Source: Paraspadella gotoi
Taxonomy: Eukaryota > Animalia > Chaetognatha
DNA length: 64,000 bases
Direction: 5' to 3'
Assembly (NCBI GenBank): GCA_051294375.1
Contig: CM119264.1
Span: 27,229,340 to 27,293,339, forward strand
Shown here: positions 4,916 to 63,300 of the stretch, piece after piece
Layout of the letters: every line of letters starts with the position of its first letter
Numbering within the stretch: the stretch's first letter is position 1
The notes under the pieces: model-generated
Seen by the model: the letters and a program-made list of their open reading frames with translations, nothing else
Told to the model about the DNA's origin: nothing
Databases searched by the model: none
Program-made: the position numbers and the translations under genes

Positions 4916-4970
4916 TTGTAAGAATGATGGAGGCCTTAAACCACCAAAGCCTGTCCAAAGTCAGGGGCAA
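4916..4970 (+). ncRNA. Degenerate type-P5 twister ribozyme-like motif
   Basis: GA-UGG-[AGGCCU]-UAA-ACC-AC-CAAAG-CCUG-UCCAAAGU-CAGG. P4, T1 (CCA/UGG) and T2 (AC/GU) can pair; P2 is broken. Confidence 0.45.
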
Positions 4971-21668: not shown

Positions 21669-24600
21669 ATGGGCGCCGAGGACGACGTGATAGCGGCTGC
21701 GCCAGCGTCTCATGATGCCGGGGAACCCATGGACGGCCTGACATCGGTCAATGAGGACAAAGACGCCCTCATCAAGGAATCGAGGGTGGCGACGGGACTC
21801 TCGGACAGCGAGGAAAGCGACGACGAAGACTGTGACGCAATTCCGAAGGCATCGAGAAAGGCGCCGTCTGGTTTGACCGACAGTGAAGAGGAGACGACGC
21901 CGACGGCGCCCATATCGCTGAACCGCGATCTTTTTGACGCCGATGACAATTCGGACGACGAAGCCGAGAGAACGCGAAGCGTTGCGACAGAGGGCGTCGT
22001 TGGCTTCACTGTCATTAAAGAGCGTGAAGAGACTACGACGACAAAGAAGAAGAAGAAGAGAGTCGTCAATAGCGACGACGACGACGACGAAGCAATCGAC
22101 GAGTCTTCGACTTTAAAATATGGCGCCGAGCCAGCCGCTATTGACTCAGACGATTCTGATTCGCCTCAAATCACGCTCAAATCCGCCGCGAAAAAAAGCG
22201 TCAAACAAAAAGCGCGAATGACGGGGTCGGATTCAGAGGAAGAGGAGAGAGGAAGCGTAAGTCTCACCTCGGCCAAGAAGAAAAAGGTGCGAAAGATAAT
22301 TTAATATCTATAGCTGTTGCTGCCTGCTGGAACTGACTCTTTAATTTATCCTATCCGATTTCATCGTCAGTCGAAAGCCGAGGAACTCAACGCCATCTAT
22401 TCGGAGTCGCAGCGACTCAAGCGCGAGGAGCGGATGTCTCTTCCTTATCATCGACCGGAAAAGATGAACGTCCTCGACTTTTTGAAGATGTCCATCGGTG
22501 GATCGCAGCTTCTGGGGACCGAAGAAGGTGAGGACTGAAAAGGTTGTAATGAATGAATGCTTTTTGTGATTTTTGAGCTCATCGAAGAAAAGATGGGAGG
22601 AGAATGACTGCAAATATTTCTTTTTTTATGGCAACAGATATACCTAATTTTAATTGACGTATTAAAATATTTATCGATATTTTCTCTATTTTTCATCTTA
22701 ACGTAAGTAACACTTTCTATCTTTTAGCAGCGCCGGTCTGCGTGGATTTCTTCAGCCCCAAAGCGAAGGAACTCGTGACCGAAAAACTGGGAAAAACGCA
22801 GACAAAAGCGGTTGCGGCGGCGACGTTGAAGAGCCCTGCAACAGAAACGGACGCGTCAGAGTTAAAAGAAAGGACCGAAGAGATAACATCGGACGTGAAA
22901 GCCGAAGAGAAAGAAGCCGGCGCGAATGACACAGAAAACGGATCCTGCTCCGCCATTGAGAATACTGACAAAGTTGTTGATGACGCAGATGACTCTCTAC
23001 CCGACATCGTCGTCGATGGAGAGAAAAAATTACGCGACGAAGTCGTGAACTCTTTGCCGACAAAGACTTTGGTCCGTGAGGAAAATTTTGGGGATATTTC
23101 TGAAAAAGATCCAGTCGAACCATCCTCGGATAATGCCGCCGAATCTCCCAACGCTTCTCAACCGATTTTATCTCTCAAATCTCTCGAGAACAAAAAATCC
23201 AGAGTTCTTCACCCTCAACTTCTCGAGACGAAGCCACGTCTCAGCGCAGGAGCATTCGGAGTCGTCAGTCTTGATGAAGATGACGATAACGACAGCCAAT
23301 CGGTTGGACTCGAGCTGTTTGAGAGGTTAGTACCCGTTGCCATAAGGCCTAAATTGTTTGGGTAAACAACTTTAAAACCCCTTAATTTCCAGGTTCGTTC
23401 GCCACTCTCGCATGGAGGCCGTGAAGAAAAACCGAAAGCATGTGGTCAAGATGAAGGTTTTGCGAAAGGCTCCGACACTCACCAGCGAGGATTCCCAGCA
23501 GACCAGCGACAAGCTTAAGTTGCAGGTCTGTGCGATGGTGCTGTCCACGATTTTTAATTTATTTTATATTATTAAATACTATTAAGTATAATTTTAGAAG
23601 TGTTAAGGACATCAATTGACTTCAGGAAATGGACGTGGTGGTAGGCGAAGACGACCCCGACTCCTTCGGCGCCGACGTTCACATCCCCGGCGCCAAACAC
23701 GAAAAACTTAAGGAAAAGCTTCGCGCCGACATGGCAGCCAAGCGCGCCGAGGCGAGGAGGAAGAGGGAAGAGGAAGAAGCTGGGGCGATGGAAGAAGAGG
23801 AACAAGAGGAAGAGGAGGAGCAGGTGGAGGAAAATCCAGAGGCAGAGCTGACAGATCAAACGGACACGGACGAGGAGGAGTTTGATGAGGAAGAGGAATT
23901 CAAGAGGAAGAAAAAGAAGAAAAAATTCGGAAAATCGGAAATGATTGACGAAGAGGTCGAAGTCTCTGGGGAAGAAGAAGAAGACGACGAGGATGAAGAC
24001 GAGGATGAACATGAGGATGAAGACGGGGAAGTTGACTCGAAATCCGAGAAAGTGGAAACTACTCCTAAAAGAACGCGAATCAGGCAAATGTCGAATTCTG
24101 ACGACGACGACGACGTCGACAAATACGATACAAATTTTGAAAAGGACAAGAAATCGATCAACGAAAAAGTGACTTCGAAGCCCTCGATGTCTTCATCGCC
24201 CCCGAGACCCAAATCCGTCTCGGACATCTTCGCCTCTTTCGGCAGCAAAAGCGACTTGGCATCCGACTTTGGCAGCCAAAGACTTTCTGACTTCGGAAGC
24301 CAGAAGCGCCTCTTCGCCGATGACGTCGTCGCTTCATCTCATCAAAACCGCGTCGACGACGACGAGCTGGCGGCGCTCTGCAGCGGCGCCTTTCCTTCAC
24401 AGAAAAGAGTGGTCGAACCTAAAATCGCCTTCGACTCCGGCGATGCGGCCCCGGACGGCGCGGTCGATGACGAGTTAGCAGCGCTCTGCAGTGGCGCCTT
24501 TCCGTCACAACCATCGGGGACTCAGAAGTCGTCAGGCGTGGACCCCTCGTCCAGTCTTAAACTCTCGTCTTCGTTGGAGGATGAAATCGGCGGAGAGCGC

Positions 24601-40320: not shown

Positions 40321-42363
40321 ATGGAATCTCTGCCGTCTGAAATTCTGGCGCTGATTTTTGCAAAACTGCCTCACCGAGATCTGGCCAGCGTCGAGCGAAC
40401 CTGCCGAATCTTTCGAAACTTTATCGTCGGGTCCGGTTTGTGGGTTCGACGCTTGAAGAGGATCGACGCCGCCGAACGCGAGCATTTGACGCGGCGATTG
40501 GAGGACTTCGTCCGTATTCCTCGAAGTCGATGGAACAACATGGAATCTGGCGTAGCCAAAACGGCCGTCATTCTGCTCGATTCGAAAATCAAAGAATTGG
40601 AGACGAACTGGAAGTTTAACAGACACACGCGGGCCTCGTTGCGAATACCGAAGGCGCAGGACCGAGCGCGGAGAATATACGTAGATTGGGTCGTCGGGAA
40701 GATCGTCATCCAATACTGCATGGCCAAGAGCGAGAAAGATCAAGGTCAAGCCGATGCGGAGGATGAAGACGAAGACGACGATGATGACGAAGATGGCGAC
40801 GGCGACTATTTCGACGACGTGAAGCCGAAATGGGTCGTAGTCTATGACCTTGCGGATTTTCGAGAGTTGGCGCGTTTCCAGACTAATTGTTTTCTACTCG
40901 GATTTGTTGACCCGAAGTTGGCGATAGCGGAATTTGACGAGAAAAATGTTCTCGTTTATATTTACGATCACGTGAGTGGAACGAAGAGAAAAGTCATTAA
41001 CCTTCAAGTTTGGTACCCAACGTTTTGTCAAGTCCTTTTTCGGAGCGAGCGAGTTTACGCTTGCAGAACGAATCCGAGTCAAATCTGCGCTTACGCCTGG
41101 GACAACGAGGAAGCCGTTGACGATGTTCGTCAAATCTTTCCCGCTGAGGACGATGAATCTCAATTCTTTCAAGAATTTTCCGTCGTTGACGATAAGTAGG
41201 AATTAGAAAGAGTTATCGAGGAAAGTTAAGAGTTTGTTTATATTATTTCTAAAATTAAGCGTTACGACTACAGGGACGATGGGACATTTGTTAGGGGTAT
41301 GAGGCATCTCTCGACAGCTGGCGCTCAGGGCTTTGGACCTGCGGTGACCACTTCATGTCACTGGTGTGTTTATACTGGTACCATCACACTTTAATCAGCA
41401 TGACCGAGAGGGGATTGAACCCGGAAGCGCCTACTTAGCTGTCCAAGCTATTTTGACAAGCTTAGTGAGACCAGAGGTTTGCCACACTACAATATTTAGC
41501 AACTGAATTGTGTGAATGTTGGGGACATCTATTACATTTCCTGAAGTCAACGAAGACCCGTTGAGGTCAGCGCTTATAATTCTCGATCCACACTTAGATT
41601 ATATGCGATCGTCGTCGACTTTCGCCTCCCGTTTATCAACGAGGGAGTCGGTCCCGGAGAATTTGTCGAGTACAGCGGACAAAAGGTCGTCGTAATCTTC
41701 CATCGCGCGACTGGCGCCGTTTTGCATCGGCTCTCTCAAAACAACATTTATGCCAACGTGTCGACGAAAGACATTTGGCAAGAAATCTCGCTGGCCGGAT
41801 CCTTTTTGGAAATCTCTTTGCTGCGAGCGGAGAATCGCAAGGCTGTCCGATCTCGGGTCATCAATCTCGCCGTCGAACCCGTAGGCTCCAAAGCCGCGTT
41901 TTTTCAGGGTCTCAACGGCTATGACTCGAAGCGATGGGTCGTGCGTAAACATTTGACCAACGCGGGCCGTTGCGTGACCGCGTTCATGAGAGCCGACTCC
42001 GCTTTCGAGGTCGGCCATGCATGCCTCACCGTTCTTAATCACGTTGTGTCGAGGGACATACCCAGATTCAACATCTTCCCCACTTTTATATTTATGAACG
42101 ATTTCGATTTGGTTCTGGTGTTCGACCATCATCCCCGGTTGACCCTGCTGCATTATAGTTTTCTGAAGATGGACTCCGGCGAGTCTTTGCGAGTTTGGGA
42201 ACGCTCGACTTGGACTAAGTTGAGCGAGCTCCGTTGGCTCGACTTGGCGCGCGGAGAGTCTTCTTTCAAAGATCCCAAGAAGATTCTTAGAGGAACCATC
42301 GATTACTTAAGAGTCGCCGATCGTCTTCGCTGGGTCAACTTGGAGAGCGACCGAGCCTCGTAA
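40321..42363 (+). CDS. F-box protein, two exons (intron 41196-41597)
   Basis: N-terminal F-box SLPSEILALIFAKLPHRDLASVERTCRIFR; frame kept across a GT-AG intron; C-terminus not recognised. Confidence 0.8.
41270..41490 (-). mobile_element. Twister-bearing SINE/retrozyme-like element, copy 1 (boundaries approximate)
   Basis: 41293-41424 is the reverse complement of 55118-55249 (132 nt ungapped, about 18 mismatches by hand count); contains B-box/T-loop-like GGTTCAATCC. Confidence 0.85.
41317..41399 (-). ncRNA. Type-P5 twister ribozyme fold, probably impaired
   Basis: Minus strand: GCUGAU-UAAA-GUGU-GA-UGG-[UACCAGUA]-UAA-ACAC-AC-P3-CAGG-UCCAAAGC-CCUG-A-GC-GCCAGC. T2 has AC in place of GC. Confidence 0.8.
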
Positions 42364-51375: not shown

Positions 51376-54300
51376 GTAATAATAATAATAACTATGTCCG
51401 TTGACGAGAATTACGCTCCAACAATAATAATTTCCCTCTCTCACCGACTTCATTCAGATCGTCGGAAAGCAGCGGCCTCGCTCACCGATCTCATCGCCAA
51501 CCCTGACGCCTGCTCCGACCTCGACGAGCTCGGTCGACCCAACACCAACTCTTCGGGTCAGGCCATCGGTGGCCGCTTCACGTGGGACTCGGTATTCACG
51601 TCGGTGGTGGGATTCGTCAAGACCGAGGCCGAGTCTTTAACCAAGGCCGCAGCAAAGGTCTGTCTAAAAGCGTCTACTTAGTAGTTGGGAAAGTAAAAAA
51701 TATTTATGCAGCGGCATCCCGTTAGGGCGGTGCATCGGCGTCGTCGGACGCGTCACGGTCTAAGAAGGCGCGCGAGGCGGCGGACGCGCTTCGTCTCGTC
51801 GCGCGACATTCGGAGAAACACGCCCACTTTTTAGACGCCTCCTCGGTGGTGGCGCAGATCCTGGACGTAGTAAGGGATGAAGAATATTATCGTTTTTTGG
51901 GTGTGGACTTTGTCAACATCTTGGCTAACGAGCTGCTGACGAGGTAATGAAACAAAGTTTAAGTCAAAGTTAACTACATTTACACCAGTTTTTCTTTCCT
52001 CTCCCTCTTGCCAGACGTCACTTTTGGATTAACATGACCCCCATTGAGTGGCGCAATCTCGTCGTCGCCGTTCGAGTTCTTCTCTCCGAACAACGAGTCA
52101 CGATTGTGGGTCGAGGATCAGAGCGTGAGGCTCTCTCGCGCTGCCTCTACCAACTCCTTCGATTGGCTTCCATGCAGGTCAGAAAAGATAGTCATAAATA
52201 TAACCATAAACAATTAACATTACTTTGCCTGACATTTGTTTACAATATTATCCTACGGGCAGCGCAGACATGCATCAAGACGAAGAAGAAGAATACTTTA
52301 TCGTTCTTCGAAAAGTTCTTCGCCGCTGCCGACGTTCACTCGGAGAGCGCCGTCGTCGTCGTCAACATCGTCAAATCCGTCAACGTTTATTGCGAAACGC
52401 TGAAAGAAGACGAACCCATGCAGATTGCAGCTCTCGGCGAAGCGATTATACCCGGTGAGTGGTGACTGTTGTTCGGAAGCGCAGCTTATTGATTAATAAT
52501 TTAAATTTTTAAATACTGTATAGTTTTGGTGAACCTTGGGCGCCGAAAAAAATCTGAGCTTCTCAAACTGGAAACCTTGAAGTTTTTACGCTTTCAATTC
52601 GATCTCCATGAAGAGATCGACGCCGTCGGCGACGAGAGATGGCGCCGATGCGTCCTTGACGTTTTCCAGGTTCTTTTCGATCAGATCTTCGAAAAACAAA
52701 AGGAAAACAAAGTGACGGGAACCTCCGGTCGTAAATCTCTCCTCCTCCCGCCGGCTTTCGTTTCTTTCGCCGCCCGAGTCTTTCGCATCGTTCTCGGTTC
52801 CACCGGCGTCGGCGCCGAGAACTCCTTCGTCGTTGCCGCAAGCGTCCGCGCAAAGCTGGATACCATCGGCCTCGCCGGGTTGCAAGGGAATGATGTGAAT
52901 GACGCGACAGGTAAATCAATTTGCGCCTCCTTATTTTTTTCCCTGATTTAATGGATTTTTTTTTTTGGTTTCTTGTTTTTTTTTGTCAGCTGGTTCCGAT
53001 GACCGAATCTTTGCCGATTCTCCGTCTTCTCCCGCCTCTCCCACTCCGGCCGCCAAGCGCCGCCGACTCGAGATTCCTTCACCTTGGCCCAAATTCACGG
53101 AACAGTTGGCAGCTTTAAAGACGAGCGCGGAGGCGGCTCCTTGGGCACAGCTCGTCGCCGCCTTGCTCCTCGGCGACTTCGGCACCTTCGATTTGGCGGA
53201 AATGCGCGATCTTTTGGAGACGCTCGTAGAGACTCTTTCGTCTAAAGGCGACAAAGGGGAAAGCGGTGGATCGAAAGTGGGTGAAGAAAAGACACGACGA
53301 CACTTTTTACCGTAAATATTTACGCCGTCGATTTCTTTTCCCTAAGGTCGTTCATTCTGTCGTCGCCGGTCAAACTTTGTCCTGCCTTCGAGAGGTTGCG
53401 TTGGCTTGGAGGAGACTGCAACGCGTCGTCGACGAACACTCCGCCGTTCTTTGGCGCCCCGCATGGAACTTGTGCTGGAGACTCTGCCACGACAAGGATT
53501 TGGAGACGAGCGCCCTCGAGGTGTTGTCGGCTATAGTTTCTGGGCGATTGCTAGGAGAGGGTTCTCGCCATCTAGACTTTGAGAGGTGAGTCGATGGTTA
53601 AATTAAGAATTCTTCGTAATTAATTAAATTTAATCCCTCATCCTCATTTATATTCTCTTCAGATGGAAATCTTTTTCTCCTTCTTGCCTCCCCGTCTCGA
53701 CGGCTTCCGTCGTTTTTCTCCTTAGCTGTCTAGCCCACGACGGCTTGCCGCATACTGACGTCTCCGCGGCAGCAGACAATGCCGTTCAAATTCATTCTCT
53801 TCGAACTAGCATCATCCGTTGGCTTCTCGATGCTGGAGATTCAGAAGCCGGACTGGATTCCTCGGGCGACGTCTCCTTCAACGCTACTATGGCATCGACG
53901 ATCGCTAATGCAACATTCGCCACACAGGTTGGTTCAACGTTTAAAGAAAAAACCCTCTGCCTCTACGAAGTAAAATAATCATCGTTTAAAACAAATCTCA
54001 ACTTTCCTGTAAAAAGGGATCCACTCAAGCAGCCAAGACTTTAGCGATCTTGTCAAAACTCAAGTGCCGCTGGCTGCCGCGAGGTCGAGATCGATCCTCG
54101 GGCCGTTCTGGTGCCGATACGCCTGCTGTGGCGCCGGTTATTCTCGCTGCGGCGCTGGTGTCGCTTTCTTTCCACGATCCTGTGGGGTTGTGTATTTGGG
54201 CGACGAGAAATAATAACGAAGATGGGTATTGGGCGAAAACCGCAAGCATAATCGACGCCGTTTGGAAAGAGGTCATAGAATAATTACTAAAATATTATGT

Positions 54301-57300
54301 AAAAATATAATTTGACAGTTAAATTTAAAACATTCCAGGTAGAGGATTCTTTATCCAAAGATGTCGATTCTCTCCGCGACAAAATCCTCAGCGTTCCAGA
54401 AATGACTTCCCTCGTTGCGCCCCACGTTCTCTCTTCCGTTTTTCTGCAAGCGACTCTCGTCAAAACCATTTATAAATTTCGCGTCTTCGTCGATCCGAAA
54501 ACAACGTTCGATCCCGACGGCGCTCTCGCTGCTCCACTGCGTCGGCTTTTACAAGAAGCCGCCCCGATTCTTCATGATTTCGCGACATCCTTCGCCGAGG
54601 GAAACCGGAAGTCGGCCGAGAAGGCCGAGCCGATTCTAAGGAGTTTGATCGAGTTGTACGATGCGAGAGAAGAAGGCGTCGCCCAATTTCTCGCCGCCGT
54701 CATTCCCGATTCCATCACGACCGCTTGTCGGCGTTTCGTCGAATCGACACCGGATTCGGCGGCGTCTTCCTCGAAGCCCAAGCCCGCTAGCGGCGGCGGC
54801 TGCGAGGATGACGATCTCTGGGTAGCAGAAACGGACAAAGCCAACGCCTTCGCTGATCCCACCAACCTGAGATGTCATGCGGACGAACGGCGCCTTGACG
54901 TCTTTGCGAGGTCGTCGAGCGCCGCCTTCGAGCTTCTCGTGAAACATGAGGAATTGGAACGAAGGATCGGCCTCACGTCGCGCGACTCATTTTCCCGGAG
55001 ATTTTTCGAACCAGGCACGTCGTAAAATTGTTTTTAATTGAATCTTTATTGAATTAACAAGTATAATATGGTGGCGAATCCTAAATTCCTAAATCCTAAA
55101 TTCACCAACCGTGAGTCCAGGGTTCAATCCCCTCACGGTCACGTTGGTTAAAGTGTGATGGAGTCGGCATAAACACGCCAGTGACATGGGGTGGTCACTG
55201 CAGGTCCAAAGCCCTGAGCGCCCGCTGTCGGGAGAGGCCTCACACCCCTGCATCGCACATATCCCCCCGTTGCCATAGTATCAATTTTAAGTTTATGCTT
55301 TTTTACTTTTAGGTTTTTTCGATCCTTCCCGTTCGTTGAGCGTTGTGGCTTTGAAATCAACATTGAGTTCATCCGTCGACGCTGATTTGATCTTTGACGT
55401 TGATCTCGTTGGTTCGTTACTGAAGGCCGTTGGCGGCGTCTTCAAATTGAGTCTATTGGTATGCAATGAAACTCCGAGACTTGTTGAAAAGAATGATTTT
55501 GTAAATTAAACCCATCGTCACTTTAAGGATCAAACCATGTATACGGCTTGCATCGCTTTCGTTCATCACCTCATCGGCGTCATAGACCGACTGAGTGGCA
55601 AGGTTTTGCCGTCAAACGACGTAAACGCAATTAATGAAGAAAACCACGGTAGGTTTGCAACAACAATAAAAAAAAAATTGCTTCTCGCTACTTTTCTCCC
55701 AGCCTTGTTGCTTGTTTATTCAATGTATTCCTCGCGTATCGTACTTTAGTGACCCTCATCTTGATGACTGTGGTCAATTCGAGTCACCAGAGTATTTTCT
55801 TTTCCTGTAATCCTTGGCCCGCCGGGCAGTGGACCTCTTTGCTTACGCTTGACTTAGATTTCTTGGACAGATTCTCTCCGATGTCAAATTGATCTAGGAA
55901 GTCGTCACGTTTTTCCTCCGTCAAACTTTCGTCATCGTCATTGGAGCGGCTGTATCGCAACAAAAATGAAAATCTCCAGCGCTAAACGTTCTTCTGGCTA
56001 AAGCTTCAAATCTCTGAAGACAGATCGTGTTTAATACTATCAAACCCTGTCAATTTCGCATTCATTTCGAAATAAATCCTTTTTTTTTTTGTTTATCTTA
56101 ATTTTCACTGATAATTTTTTTCATTGGAAGACTGCAATGGCGAGCAACTTCCCAAAACCACCCGTTCTGTTGGGAGTTCCCGACGAACCAGTCGCATCCC
56201 CTCAAGACTCAAATTACACCACCACGAAATACGGAGGCGCCTGCGACCCAATTCCGCCTTTGACTCGCAGAGATTTCCGACGGTCCTGCCGAATTTGCGG
56301 GAGATCGTCTCAACTTATCTCTCAAATATATTGTCCCTGGTCAGAGAGTCCGTTTCACCGAACCATCTACCTCCTTGCCTGCACCCACCGCGACTGTTGG
56401 AACAAAGAAGAGGGTTGGGTGGCGTTGAGAGGTCAGGCGATTTCCGTCGATGTCGAATCACGAGTGACGACGGAAAAGAAAGCAGACATTTTCGAACTCG
56501 ACGATGAATGGGGAGACGAGGAAGATGACGCCGATGATATAGACTTCCCTTTGCGCAATTTGAGCTCAACTCGCGTGACTTTGCAAGATTCAGCCGTCGA
56601 CGAATCGGAAGACGTCGGTAATCGTCGTCAAGATAATTCCGAATCCGCCAAGATTTGCCAAGACGTCATCGAGGAAGGAAATGTGACGGAAGAGCATTTC
56701 CAGCCTTTTTACATGGCGTGCGTAGAAGATGAAGGAAGCCATGAAGTGACTGACGGTCATGTACAGCAACTTCTCATGAATTACAATCGCTCGGAAGGCG
56801 TTGCGGAGGACATAGCTTCTATGTTGGAGGACAAATGTCAGATCGATGGATTCGGCATCGAAAAATACGAGAAGGAAGTGGCGCGTCATGGCGACGCAGC
56901 CTTCCAGCGTTTCGTCGACACGATCGCCCGGAATCCCTCCCAGATTCTTCGATACTCGTTGGGCGGCGATCCGTTGTTGATGGAACCGATGTCGCAGGCG
57001 GTAGCGCCCTGTCAGAGTTGCGGATCAAAGCGAATTTTCGAGCTGCAACTTTTGCCGACGATGGTCAACTTTTTACGCGCCGACTCTGAACTATCCATCG
57101 ACTTTGGCACGGCTTTGGTCTTTTCTTGCGAAAAGTCTTGCTGGAACGTAGACGAATTGCGGCTCGTGGAAGAAAGGGTCGTTTTGCAATCGGAACCTGG
57201 GAGAGAATTTGTCATGGGAAACTAATTTTGATGACGGAACATTTTTGAATTTTCTAGTTGACCATTATTGAACAGGCTAATTTGACTTCGTTTAGAATAA

Positions 57301-60300: not shown

Positions 60301-63300
60301 TGCCGGACGTGGAGGACTTGTTGGAACAACTCAAAGAGAGGGAGGCTCAGTTCGTTTCCGAAGAAGATCAGAGATTAACGTTTTCTCTGTCGGAGCGTTT
60401 CTTTCCCTTTTTGCGACTCGCGAGGTTGGAAGATGGAGATCGAGAGAATCGCAGCTTTAACGGGGAAAGTGTTGCCGCGTTGGGTGAAGAGCGGTTCATG
60501 AGATTCGCCGATGCCGACAATCAAGGTTGTCAAGTGTATTTTAATAAAGGAGAAATTGCAACGTATATTAAATTATACTAAATTATTTTCTTGAATGAAA
60601 TTATAGATTTCGTGACTGTCCTCTGCAAATCGCTCTTGTCCTCGGGTTTAGTCCGAGAAGCGATCGTCTCCTCCTGCGACGAACTGCTCGACGTAGACTA
60701 CGACTTCGCCTTCCCTTTTCTTCCTCTCGTCGTGGAATCGGCGTTGAGCGGCGGCGAAGTGGATTCCAGTGCGCGGACTCTCCTCTCCGACCGGATCCGG
60801 GAATTCTTCGAGTCGGTGCCGAGTGAGAGTGGGACTCTGACGAGGAACGAGCGGAGAGCAACGGAGGCATTGCTCGGCGTCGTTGCGTACTTAAGACTGA
60901 GACAGCGCCCGCGTGTTGCCAGGTTTGTAGATGGATGACCTTTACAGAATCTGAGATTCGTTCTAACCAAATTTGTCGCATCCTCGCAGGTCGAGATCTT
61001 CCCCTCCTCCTTTCACCGACTGGGCCAACGAGTTTTGGCTCGAGTTGGATCACCTTTGCGTCTCCAAGGCTGCCCTCGCCTGTGGACAACCCTTTGCGGC
61101 AGTCATGTACTTGGAGTTGTGGGTAAAGCAACGACGAAAGAACGACGGCGTGGATGAAAATTCGCAGACGAAAAAGGATATTTTGAAAACGAATTCGGGG
61201 TAAGTGATTTTTATCTTGAAATAGAAAGTCCTTTACGTGGGCTTCGCGTGCGCAACTTATTTTTAAAAATACTGTGGTGGTATATTCACACCACCTCACG
61301 TCCACGATTCGTTCGGCCAATTACCATTGGCTCAGAGGGGGAACACACCATCCCAGGCCTTTTGTTCCATCCAAAGTCAAAACGACTTCCCTCTGCGTTG
61401 GCAAAGCGAGACCGTCCTAGGGTAACCGCGCCAGTGACTGGATGTATCACTGAGGGTCGGAAGCCCCCAAAGCCAACAGTGAGATGCCCCAACTCAATGG
61501 GCATCACAGGCAACCCGGCTGTTGCCATAATACTTTTTTTTTTGTAGATATTCTGGATCTGTGTCCTCTCATTTAAGCGCCGTATATGCTGCATTAGGGG
61601 AATCAGACTGTATTTATGGCTGTGGTTCCGAACTTGTAGCAAATCCCAAGGTAACTTTGCTGTGAATCCAGAATTTGCCTTTTTCTTACTTAAACCATAT
61701 CTATTCTTACATAGGACGCCGTTTCGCTTTACATTTTTGAGAAAAAGTGGGATTCGGCGGCGTCCTCGGCCAACTGCCTTCCTCCCCATGACGCCGCGGC
61801 GCCCCTCGCCAAGTCACTCGTCAACCTCAACCTCCCTAACGTCGCTTTCGATTTTCTGAGTCGAGCCGCGAATTCTTCCCGACTTTGCGCCGAAGAGTCG
61901 GAGATTTTTTACGAGAGCGCCATCAAGCTTTCCAAGTGGAACCTGGACATCGTTCGAAGTCAGTCTAGGTATGTCTAGGTGTGACAATATCAAGACTCGA
62001 GAATGACATTTTTCATCTGTTATTTTTAATAATTTTTTTTTCCTTTAAACAGCAAAGGCGCTTCTTCGAAGGCTCCTCCATTTTATCAGTGCATCTACAA
62101 TTGCCTCTCCGGAATAAAGATCGGAAACCTTCGAGCGGTGGAGGAGTTCGAAGGAGTGGCGATCCAGTCTCTCTTGGAAGATGTCAAGGCCTCGTCTCAT
62201 AGCATTCACTCGGTCAATCCCATCTTGACCAAAGCTAAAACATTCATGGTAATGGAACGATAGTGTTTTTCCAATTTTTCTTTTATTTTAATTTGTACGT
62301 TTCTTGGTGCAGGATATTTGCGAGCTACGTCGTTTGGCAATTGATCCCACGACGACGCCTTTGGAGTGGCGTTCCCTCGCCACAGCTTGGAAGGCGGACT
62401 GCGATTCCCTTCGGCGTCAAGACTTTTCAGTGGCCGACAAAATTATCGCCGTCAGGCTGGCCTGTTCCGATGCGGTTGAGAGGATCGTCGAGTCGTCCTT
62501 TTCTGACTCTCGCGAGAATTTTTCTAATTCGTGGCGCCGAGAGAAGTTGAAACTAGTCTTCGATCTCTGCAAAATCTCTCGAGATCAGGGATGGCATCAC
62601 GCGTCGAAAGGAGCCTTCGCCAGGCTTGGCCAGATGCTTGAGGAGGATCAAGGGGCGAGCCTTGTCCCTTACTGGGAGTTGGAGGAGCCTTCTCTCTATT
62701 GGGAAATGGGGGAAGAGGAAAAGGCTAAGTTTTTGTTAAGAAGAGTCATCGAGGGAGAGACGAAGAGCCAATCTACGCGACTCGTCGTCCCCCTGGCGCT
62801 GAACACGATGGGAGCCTGGCTTTCCGAAAGTAATATGGCGAGGTAAGTCTGGTTCATTCGCGGTTTCGCTTTAGTTTTCCTCAATTGTCGAATCTCTTTC
62901 TTAGTTCCACGACGATCAACGACGACTATCTGCAACGCTCCGTGGATATGTTAAAGCAGACCTCGGCACTCTACGAATCAAAGTCGGACAAAGAAATCCT
63001 CAGTCGCATCCACTTGACCGTGGCCAAGTTCGCCGACGCAGAGTATCAGAGTATCAAGGATTACATGGAGAGCAGTCTCTACGCGGAGAAGCGACAGATC
63101 ATGTCCGAACAAGAGGCAGAACTAGAGGGGTTGATACCCTTGCGCGGCTCGCTCGGAAAAGGTAAACTGAAATCGGCAAATGTACTCATCTGCTGATTTT
63201 TAGATTCTATCGACCAATATTTTTTGTTCTCCTCTTTGGGCAGACGATCAAAAATACCTGACTATCATGAAGAGGACCCGCGACCAAGACGCGAAGGCCG

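Follow-up and report, generated by a model that had tools for sequence, protein, structure and literature searches.

A predicted circularly permuted twister ribozyme borne by a high-copy dispersed repeat, one copy of which sits within an intron of the likely ATM gene

In the window analysed here, a stretch of 64,000 nucleotides (64 kb) from an animal with a compact genome, the segment 55143–55225 raises the question of whether an intron conceals a self-cleaving RNA and, if so, whether that RNA belongs to the host gene or to something inserted into it. The initial annotation had read the segment as a circularly permuted, type-P5 twister that cuts between 55170 and 55171, a single hidden ribozyme inside an ATM intron. 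Proteins encoded in the window found their best named matches in diverse animals (DDX56, 73–76%; PDCD2-like, 31–43%). The parts of the fold, as read from the letters of the copy at this locus (copy 1), were as follows.

55143..55225, plus strand: type-P5-order twister, predicted from the descriptor, the phage-derived model R1 and covariation
55143-48/55220-25, plus strand: P5 stem, closing the fold; 5 of 6 pairs in copy 1
55153-56, plus strand: P2' GUGU
55157-58, plus strand: GA, with the invariant G at 55157
55159-61, plus strand: T1' UGG
55162-69, plus strand: mini-P1 region, two pairs in copy 1, the first pair being A-A
55170-72, plus strand: UAA, predicted cut 55170/55171
55173-76, plus strand: P2 ACAC
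55177-78/55211-12, plus strand: T2 GC
55179-85/55194-200, plus strand: P3, 7 bp
55201-04/55213-16, plus strand: P4
55205-12, plus strand: L4 loop UCCAAAGC

Every core element that had been claimed was found at its claimed position: the invariant core nucleotides of the twister (GA, UAA, GC and U..AGC) are all present, together with P2 and P4. As the P5 permutation has it, the fold ends in P5, and P2'-GA-T1' lies upstream of the predicted cut. In the three copies described below, T1 pairs at 3/3 positions in every copy, two of the pairs being compensatory, while T2 pairing is complete in copies 1 and 3 and broken in copy 2. The P1 stem has two pairs in copy 1 and three in copies 2 and 3, with a loop of 2 nt. 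According to section 12 of PMC5408937, P1 is dispensable in trans; the portion of PMC8501958 that treats twisters without P1 calls them inefficient.

A descriptor of the P5 order, which combined the pairing of P2, T1 and P4 with GA, UAA, GC and AGC, matched the window once in its strict form, at the copy 1 core, and twice when relaxed, and 100 block-wise dinucleotide shuffles of the window gave no match on either strand. Comparison with covariance models, which the initial annotation had proposed as a check, went against it at Rfam: the scan of the window at gathering scores returned no match, and the best match of the core in the twister clan was a partial one to twister-P1 (20.8 bits, cut-off 67.2, E 0.087), with one further, lower-scoring clan match hidden in the Rfam listing. 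From these two results it follows that the core falls below the cut-off of the Twister-P5 model (RF02684; 37.6 bits). When 55135–55200 was scanned separately to bring out the P5 model, only one unrelated weak match was returned.

Phage material was gathered by two pattern scans of viral contigs, and the at least 199 loci obtained yielded 37 distinct cores that passed the descriptor. Rfam placed 19 of 20 phage cores above the Twister-P5 cut-off, the remaining one giving two P1 matches. Model R1, an alignment of 29 of the 37 cores with eight near-duplicates left out, scored copy 1 at 27.7 bits (E 2e-5, E-values being rough), rank 1 among the 18 matches listed, in a test that was partly circular, since 10 of the 29 cores had come via a pattern with the T1 letters of copy 1. 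Copy 2 ranked second (25.3 bits) and copy 3 reached 5.7 bits only; the bit losses were attributable to the tiny P1 and the P3 insert. The next match after copies 1 and 2, at 4921–4968 (13.6 bits), was taken as chance. Among the phage loci, L049:99-198 (minus strand) carries two adjacent twister-P1 matches and also a P5-order core with a 6-nt linker, and so constitutes a natural case of tandem P1 units yielding the P5 order.

The type-P5 reading and the predicted cut site were thus backed by the descriptor, the phage-derived model and, as described below, covariation with a diverged copy, and these models indicate that copy 1 holds a complete circularly permuted twister fold, which is predicted to be self-cleaving. 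We regard self-cleavage as highly probable for RNA of the family-majority sequence and as moderately probable for the minimal copy 1.

The twister sits in one copy of a high-copy dispersed repeat of approximately 210–255 nt, a status that the initial annotation had overlooked. Three copies were located in the window.

55065..55276, plus strand: copy 1, subfamily A, approximately 210 nt, ends approximate; flanked by AGTAT at 55060-64 and 55277-81
41273..41485, minus strand: copy 2, subfamily A, 87% identical over 130 nt, antisense; TGTAGT on both sides
61274..61528, plus strand: copy 3, subfamily B; AATACT on both sides, with the 3' hairpin and the GTTGCCAT end in common

Copy 2 lies in a spliced 402-nt intron (41196–41597) and carries a G to A change in T2 at 41365, which likely impairs its ribozyme. 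The twister of copy 3 spans 61397–61477, with a predicted cut at 61423/61424, and this copy lies in sense orientation in a 348-nt GT-AG intron (61200–61547) of the same likely ATM gene, predicted from the frame only. Each of the three copies is a monomer, with a single ribozyme inside it and ends like those of the others, and nhmmer with the three as query found no fourth copy in the window. Two GTTGCCATA words (22626–22637, minus strand; 23333–23344, plus strand), which resemble the 3' end of the element and stand in opposite orientation about 700 nt apart, gave no nhmmer match and were rejected as element remnants; they also resemble RFX X-box half-sites. Near copy 2, a 315-nt contig of run X9 (41313–41627, depth 24) reads unspliced from the copy into the next exon and represents a retained intron or DNA, and a GAC-rich low-complexity coding stretch at 40744–40831 shows high contig depth in all four runs, likely a simple-repeat artefact.

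Summed DNA contig depth over 55112–55195 was 79,588, 49,098 and 21,913 in runs X2 (possibly the source sample), X6 and X8, with flank depths of 27.9, 31.1 and 12.7 (element-to-flank ratios of about 2850, 1580 and 1725); because summed contig depth is no copy number, the family size was taken as hundreds to a few thousand copies. The notion of a single hidden ribozyme of ATM found no support: the 64 kb contain three copies, copy 1 among them, and the family stands at roughly thousandfold or more DNA depth. Per DNA run, 36–48 contigs carried identical 30 letters before 55101 and 35–58 carried identical letters after 55248, and contig depth showed no step at the predicted cut site; with head and tail in common and no such step, the copies run through the cut site and are not truncated there. 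The family majority differs from copy 1 at 55144, 55162, 55223 and 55236, which completes P5, P1 and the downstream hairpin, and restores T2 at position 41365 of copy 2. Copy 1 has accordingly drifted from the majority in these three parts, and its A-box-like segment is gone. Since the likeness filter of 85 is biased towards close copies, an unvarying core argues only weakly for selection. A joint of 55247 back to 55104, such as a head-to-tail dimer would give, was found at this likeness of 85, at which repeat artefacts are possible, in one contig per run in 3/3 DNA runs, at single-copy depth. Searched against metagenomes, a family-specific pattern gave no match; a looser pattern gave one metagenome and two prokaryote matches, which were judged by eye to be chance, their pairing being incomplete and one lying in apparent coding sequence.

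Across the three cores, 6 of 29 pairs had changed on both sides (two of the three in T1, and one each in P1, P2, P4 and P5). Over the three copies, 90.7% of 86 paired cells were indeed paired, as against 26–40% when the partners were slid as a control, in a set of three related sequences with the structure taken from one of them. Of the eight unpaired cells, copy 1 accounts for two (the first of P1 and one of P5), copy 2 for three (one each of T2, P3 and P5) and copy 3 for three (one each of P2, P3 and P4). This covariation supports selection on the fold, short of proof.

Outside the twister, the following features of copy 1 were recognised.

55067..55277, plus strand: terminal helix of 55067-76 with 55268-77; 10 pairs, three of them G-U, no mismatch, predicted p 0.9
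55079..55100, plus strand: short TCCTAAAT duplication, in place of the A-box-like hairpin of other family copies
55108..55139, plus strand: hairpin, read from the sequence, with T-loop/B-box-like GGTTCAATCC at 55121-30
55251..55258, plus strand: candidate masking strand, complementary to P2'-GA-T1' (55153-60), predicted p 0.99-1.0 once transcribed

The A-box-like hairpin stands upstream in copy 2 and before 55101 in the family loose-end consensus. We take GGTTCAATCC to match the B-box consensus exactly, the A-box-like match being weak or lost, and the hairpin that holds it is likely a Pol III internal promoter; ARAGORN found no tRNA genes in the window. The head of copy 3 (61274–61396) is unlike that of subfamily A and had no significant match in Rfam; it contains several stable hairpins, with A-box-like and B-box-like motifs at 61328 and 61364, the former about 55 nt from the 5' end. 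Copies 1 and 3 terminate in GTTGCCAT, and the ends of copy 3 also form a 10-pair helix with four G-U pairs and no mismatch; a terminal helix of this kind arose by chance in 227 of 20000 windows. The flank repeats of the three copies measure 5, 6 and 6 nt, lengths reached by chance in 4465/20000 (5 nt) and 1247/20000 (6 nt) random windows, so that 5 nt alone is weak. SINE traits are present in that the element is short, non-coding, high-copy and dispersed, and no A-tail is visible in the three window copies.

The minimum free energy (MFE) structure of 55130–55240 is not the twister, and its stability is no better than that of shuffles (z 0.27). With pseudoknot energy left uncounted, the price of forcing P2, P3 and P4 rises from 1.3 kcal for a transcript ending at 55222–26 to 4.5 for one ending at 55230, and forcing the twister helices costs 12 kcal once 55251–58 pairs with P2'-GA-T1' in the full element; the family loose-end consensus is likewise complementary to P2'-GA-T1'. 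The fold cost of copy 1 was 3.5 kcal with 10-nt flanks and 4.6 with 40-nt flanks, that of the 37 phage cores at most 1.9 and up to 5.9, respectively, and that of copy 3 3.7–7.0 kcal, and the P1 linker measures 8 nt in copy 1 as against 15–28 in 36 of the 37 phage cores. By these models, the nested-fold cost lowers the odds of efficient cutting by copy 1, and the costs would fit a ribozyme that is active only while being transcribed; section 12 of PMC5408937 gives twister cleavage rates of 1–10 per minute.

On balance, we consider it reasonably probable that the repeat is a non-autonomous retroelement of the SINE or retrozyme type, whose RNA would start from the likely Pol III promoter and cut itself at the predicted U|A site. 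Rare head-to-tail master loci would yield transcripts with two ribozymes, and a helper reverse transcriptase would copy the element into new A/T-rich sites with duplications of 5–6 nt. During transcription the twister fold may be reachable briefly, until downstream strands mask the core; such masking would spare uncut RNA as a template and permit splicing of the host intron. The P5 order and the mini-P1 may have originated in a head-to-tail join of a P1-type twister. Counting against the retrozyme side of this reading, the tandem evidence amounts to one contig per run, and each window copy is a single unit with its ribozyme inside, whereas retrozymes are by definition tandem units bounded by ribozymes; the similar ends of these monomers would not follow from a circle unless the priming site is fixed. 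No helper element for the repeat was found. The fuller proposal, that of a Pol III-driven retrozyme or SINE family with a permuted twister, thousands of copies and at least two subfamilies, in which a co-transcriptional window is followed by masking from the 3' strand, is offered tentatively. Were it true, timed masking would reconcile the upstream promoter with the internal cut, and the family would seed many host introns, that of ATM included, with timed self-cleaving sites.

The same copies could instead be those of an ordinary SINE with a tRNA head and a captured twister, amplified by target-primed reverse transcription of uncut RNA, with the ribozyme mostly off and either playing no positive part or limiting expression; the twister could derive, for example, from the 5' terminus of an RTE LINE and owe its permutation to a head-to-tail join. 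Dispersed monomers with common ends and short flank repeats are what such an element would leave, and the masking of the core in the full-length fold points the same way. RTE 5' ends carry P1-type twisters (in the parts of PMC8501958 and PMC7761336 that concern them), and according to the SINE review PMC5786205, SINE bodies draw on RTE 5' parts, and 5' truncation is to be expected of an element whose RNA-derived head is followed by a ribozyme. Against this, compensatory changes in T1, P1, P2, P4 and P5 between the subfamilies argue for selection on the fold, and the core is intact in the family majority; we thus rate the ordinary SINE as rather unlikely.

A role specific to the host gene depends on what that gene and its intron are.

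55015..55312, plus strand: GC-AG intron of 298 nt in the likely ATM gene, with an RNA-type contig joint and an open frame across

In run X9, typed as RNA by guess only, one contig joins 55012 to 55311 with three letters of slide. The same contig connects five exons over 53661–55648, with a frame free of stops after joining; the other three introns in this stretch measure 67–89 nt, and the insertion of approximately 210 nt accounts for the extra length of the 298-nt intron, whose donor (55015–55016) is a non-canonical GC. X9 lacks cover over the unique 5' part of copy 1, which carries no evidential weight. Two exons at 62.8–63.5 kb gave weak, colinear matches in PDB to human ATM 2356–2425 (E 0.0075) and 2436–2503 (E 0.013); three further exons searched against PDB gave no ATM match, and Pfam found no family in 10 frames of the ATM region. 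Of the placement inside an ATM intron, then, the spliced plus-strand GC-AG intron 55015–55312 stood, and the ATM name was reduced to a likely one that derives from the weak colinear PDB matches, the exons at 55 kb and 63 kb being inferred to belong to one gene. Amid the likely ATM exons, an uninterrupted PDCD2-like frame at 56134–57225 (plus strand; PF04194, E 1.9e-28) appears to be a nested intronless gene on the same strand as the likely ATM gene.

Copy 1 might have undergone exaptation, its race with splicing serving to adjust ATM expression, for which the intronic CPEB3 ribozyme is the precedent (PMC10274809). It is a sense copy, lies 142 nt ahead of the 3' splice site and follows the weak GC donor, another intron of the likely ATM gene holds a second sense copy, and no empty-site joint across the element was seen in three DNA runs. 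The very many copies speak against exaptation, however, as do the departures of copy 1 from the majority that weaken its P1 and P5, the splicing of its intron in the one RNA-type run, and the antisense orientation and broken T2 of copy 2. Exaptation is accordingly improbable: copy 1 is likely a passenger in decay, and an ATM-specific role is unlikely.

A DNA-level element (a MITE or a solo LTR) with the twister as cargo would account for the roughly inverted ends, with TGG and CCA near the termini, and for the flank repeats of 5–6 nt. At the DNA level, however, the inverted ends match at only 7/10 and 6/10 positions, and all the mismatches are G-U pairs on the ribozyme strand, as an RNA helix predicts; copy 2, moreover, lacks the CCA end, and no internal or two-LTR form was seen, which leaves this explanation very improbable. 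A chance match or an intronic C/D snoRNA (GUGAUG near 55155, CUGA at 55214–17), for which the missing Rfam gathering match and the unremarkable MFE z of 0.27 might be cited, can hardly be credited when 100 shuffles gave no descriptor match, copy 3 loses both box-like words while the twister pairings stay, and no snoRNA family appeared among the Rfam matches.

Returning to the retroelement reading, descriptions of ribozyme-bearing non-autonomous retroelements in animals concern hammerheads, and those of twisters place them at the 5' ends of autonomous RTE elements; in the open-licence literature we found no description of a twister-bearing SINE or retrozyme and, on intronic ribozymes and splicing, the CPEB3 work alone. 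A high-copy family that has retained a Pol III-like head together with a P5 twister whose core is intact and covaries would put to the test by what means such elements keep their own promoter from being cut away, and would supply both a biological role for the P5 permutation and, for work on compact twisters, a natural series of mutants. The family further raises the question of how a genome of very short introns tolerates self-cleaving inserts on the sense strand.

Among known systems, the repeat's twister resembles RF02684 in its order P2'-GA-T1'-P1-UAA-P2-GC-P4/L4, and the T1 variant UGG/CCA of copy 1 also occurs in phage, where 10/10 loci with that variant pass the Rfam P5 cut-off. Unlike RF02684, it has a mini-P1 (8-nt linker), a 7-bp P3 and a closing P5, falls below the cut-off and lies in an animal repeat, whereas P5 twister examples are mostly environmental or bacterial. 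In that it is a sense ribozyme within an intron of a host gene, copy 1 is like the CPEB3 ribozyme, which is HDV-like and single-copy. The CPEB3 ribozyme has a shown effect on its mRNA, as the relevant part of PMC10274809 reports, whereas here we deal with a repeat copy any effect of which is hypothetical. With the twister T-variants of Perere-3 (RTE) in S. mansoni, the repeat shares a retroelement-borne twister, a similar P3 and UAAA before P2'; those variants, however, have the P1 order and occupy the 5' end of a LINE that is autonomous, and their target-site duplication abuts the cut (both from the Perere-3 portion of PMC8501958). In the present element the cut instead falls mid-element, with copies reaching about 100 nt or further upstream.

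From the hammerhead SINE of Schistosoma mansoni (Sm-alpha), the repeat differs in bearing a twister instead. Both are short repeats with a Pol III promoter followed by a self-cleaving ribozyme, each of these two being a prediction in the present case (PMC6765202); in section 11 of that source, cutting leaves the Schistosoma promoter at the 3' end of the monomer, and the masters are tandem copies, single copies being unable to spread. Metazoan non-LTR retrozymes, as the pertinent parts of PMC7229834 and bioRxiv 10.64898/2026.07.22.740005 present them, are likewise non-coding, of about 220–250 nt, with one ribozyme per unit and with both dispersed monomers and tandems; those of corals, at 220–245 nt, are circularised by RtcB (PMC7229834). 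Non-LTR retrozymes are, however, defined by type I hammerheads in tandem units and linked to Penelope elements. No hammerhead was found among the Rfam matches of the window elements, which sets the family apart from that definition. Retrozymes are also reported to be depleted from Xenopus introns, whereas here, in a compact genome, 3/3 window copies are intronic. By analogy with these systems, the best reading is that the twister repeat would work like the ribozyme-bearing non-autonomous retroelements while standing outside the retrozymes that are defined by hammerheads.
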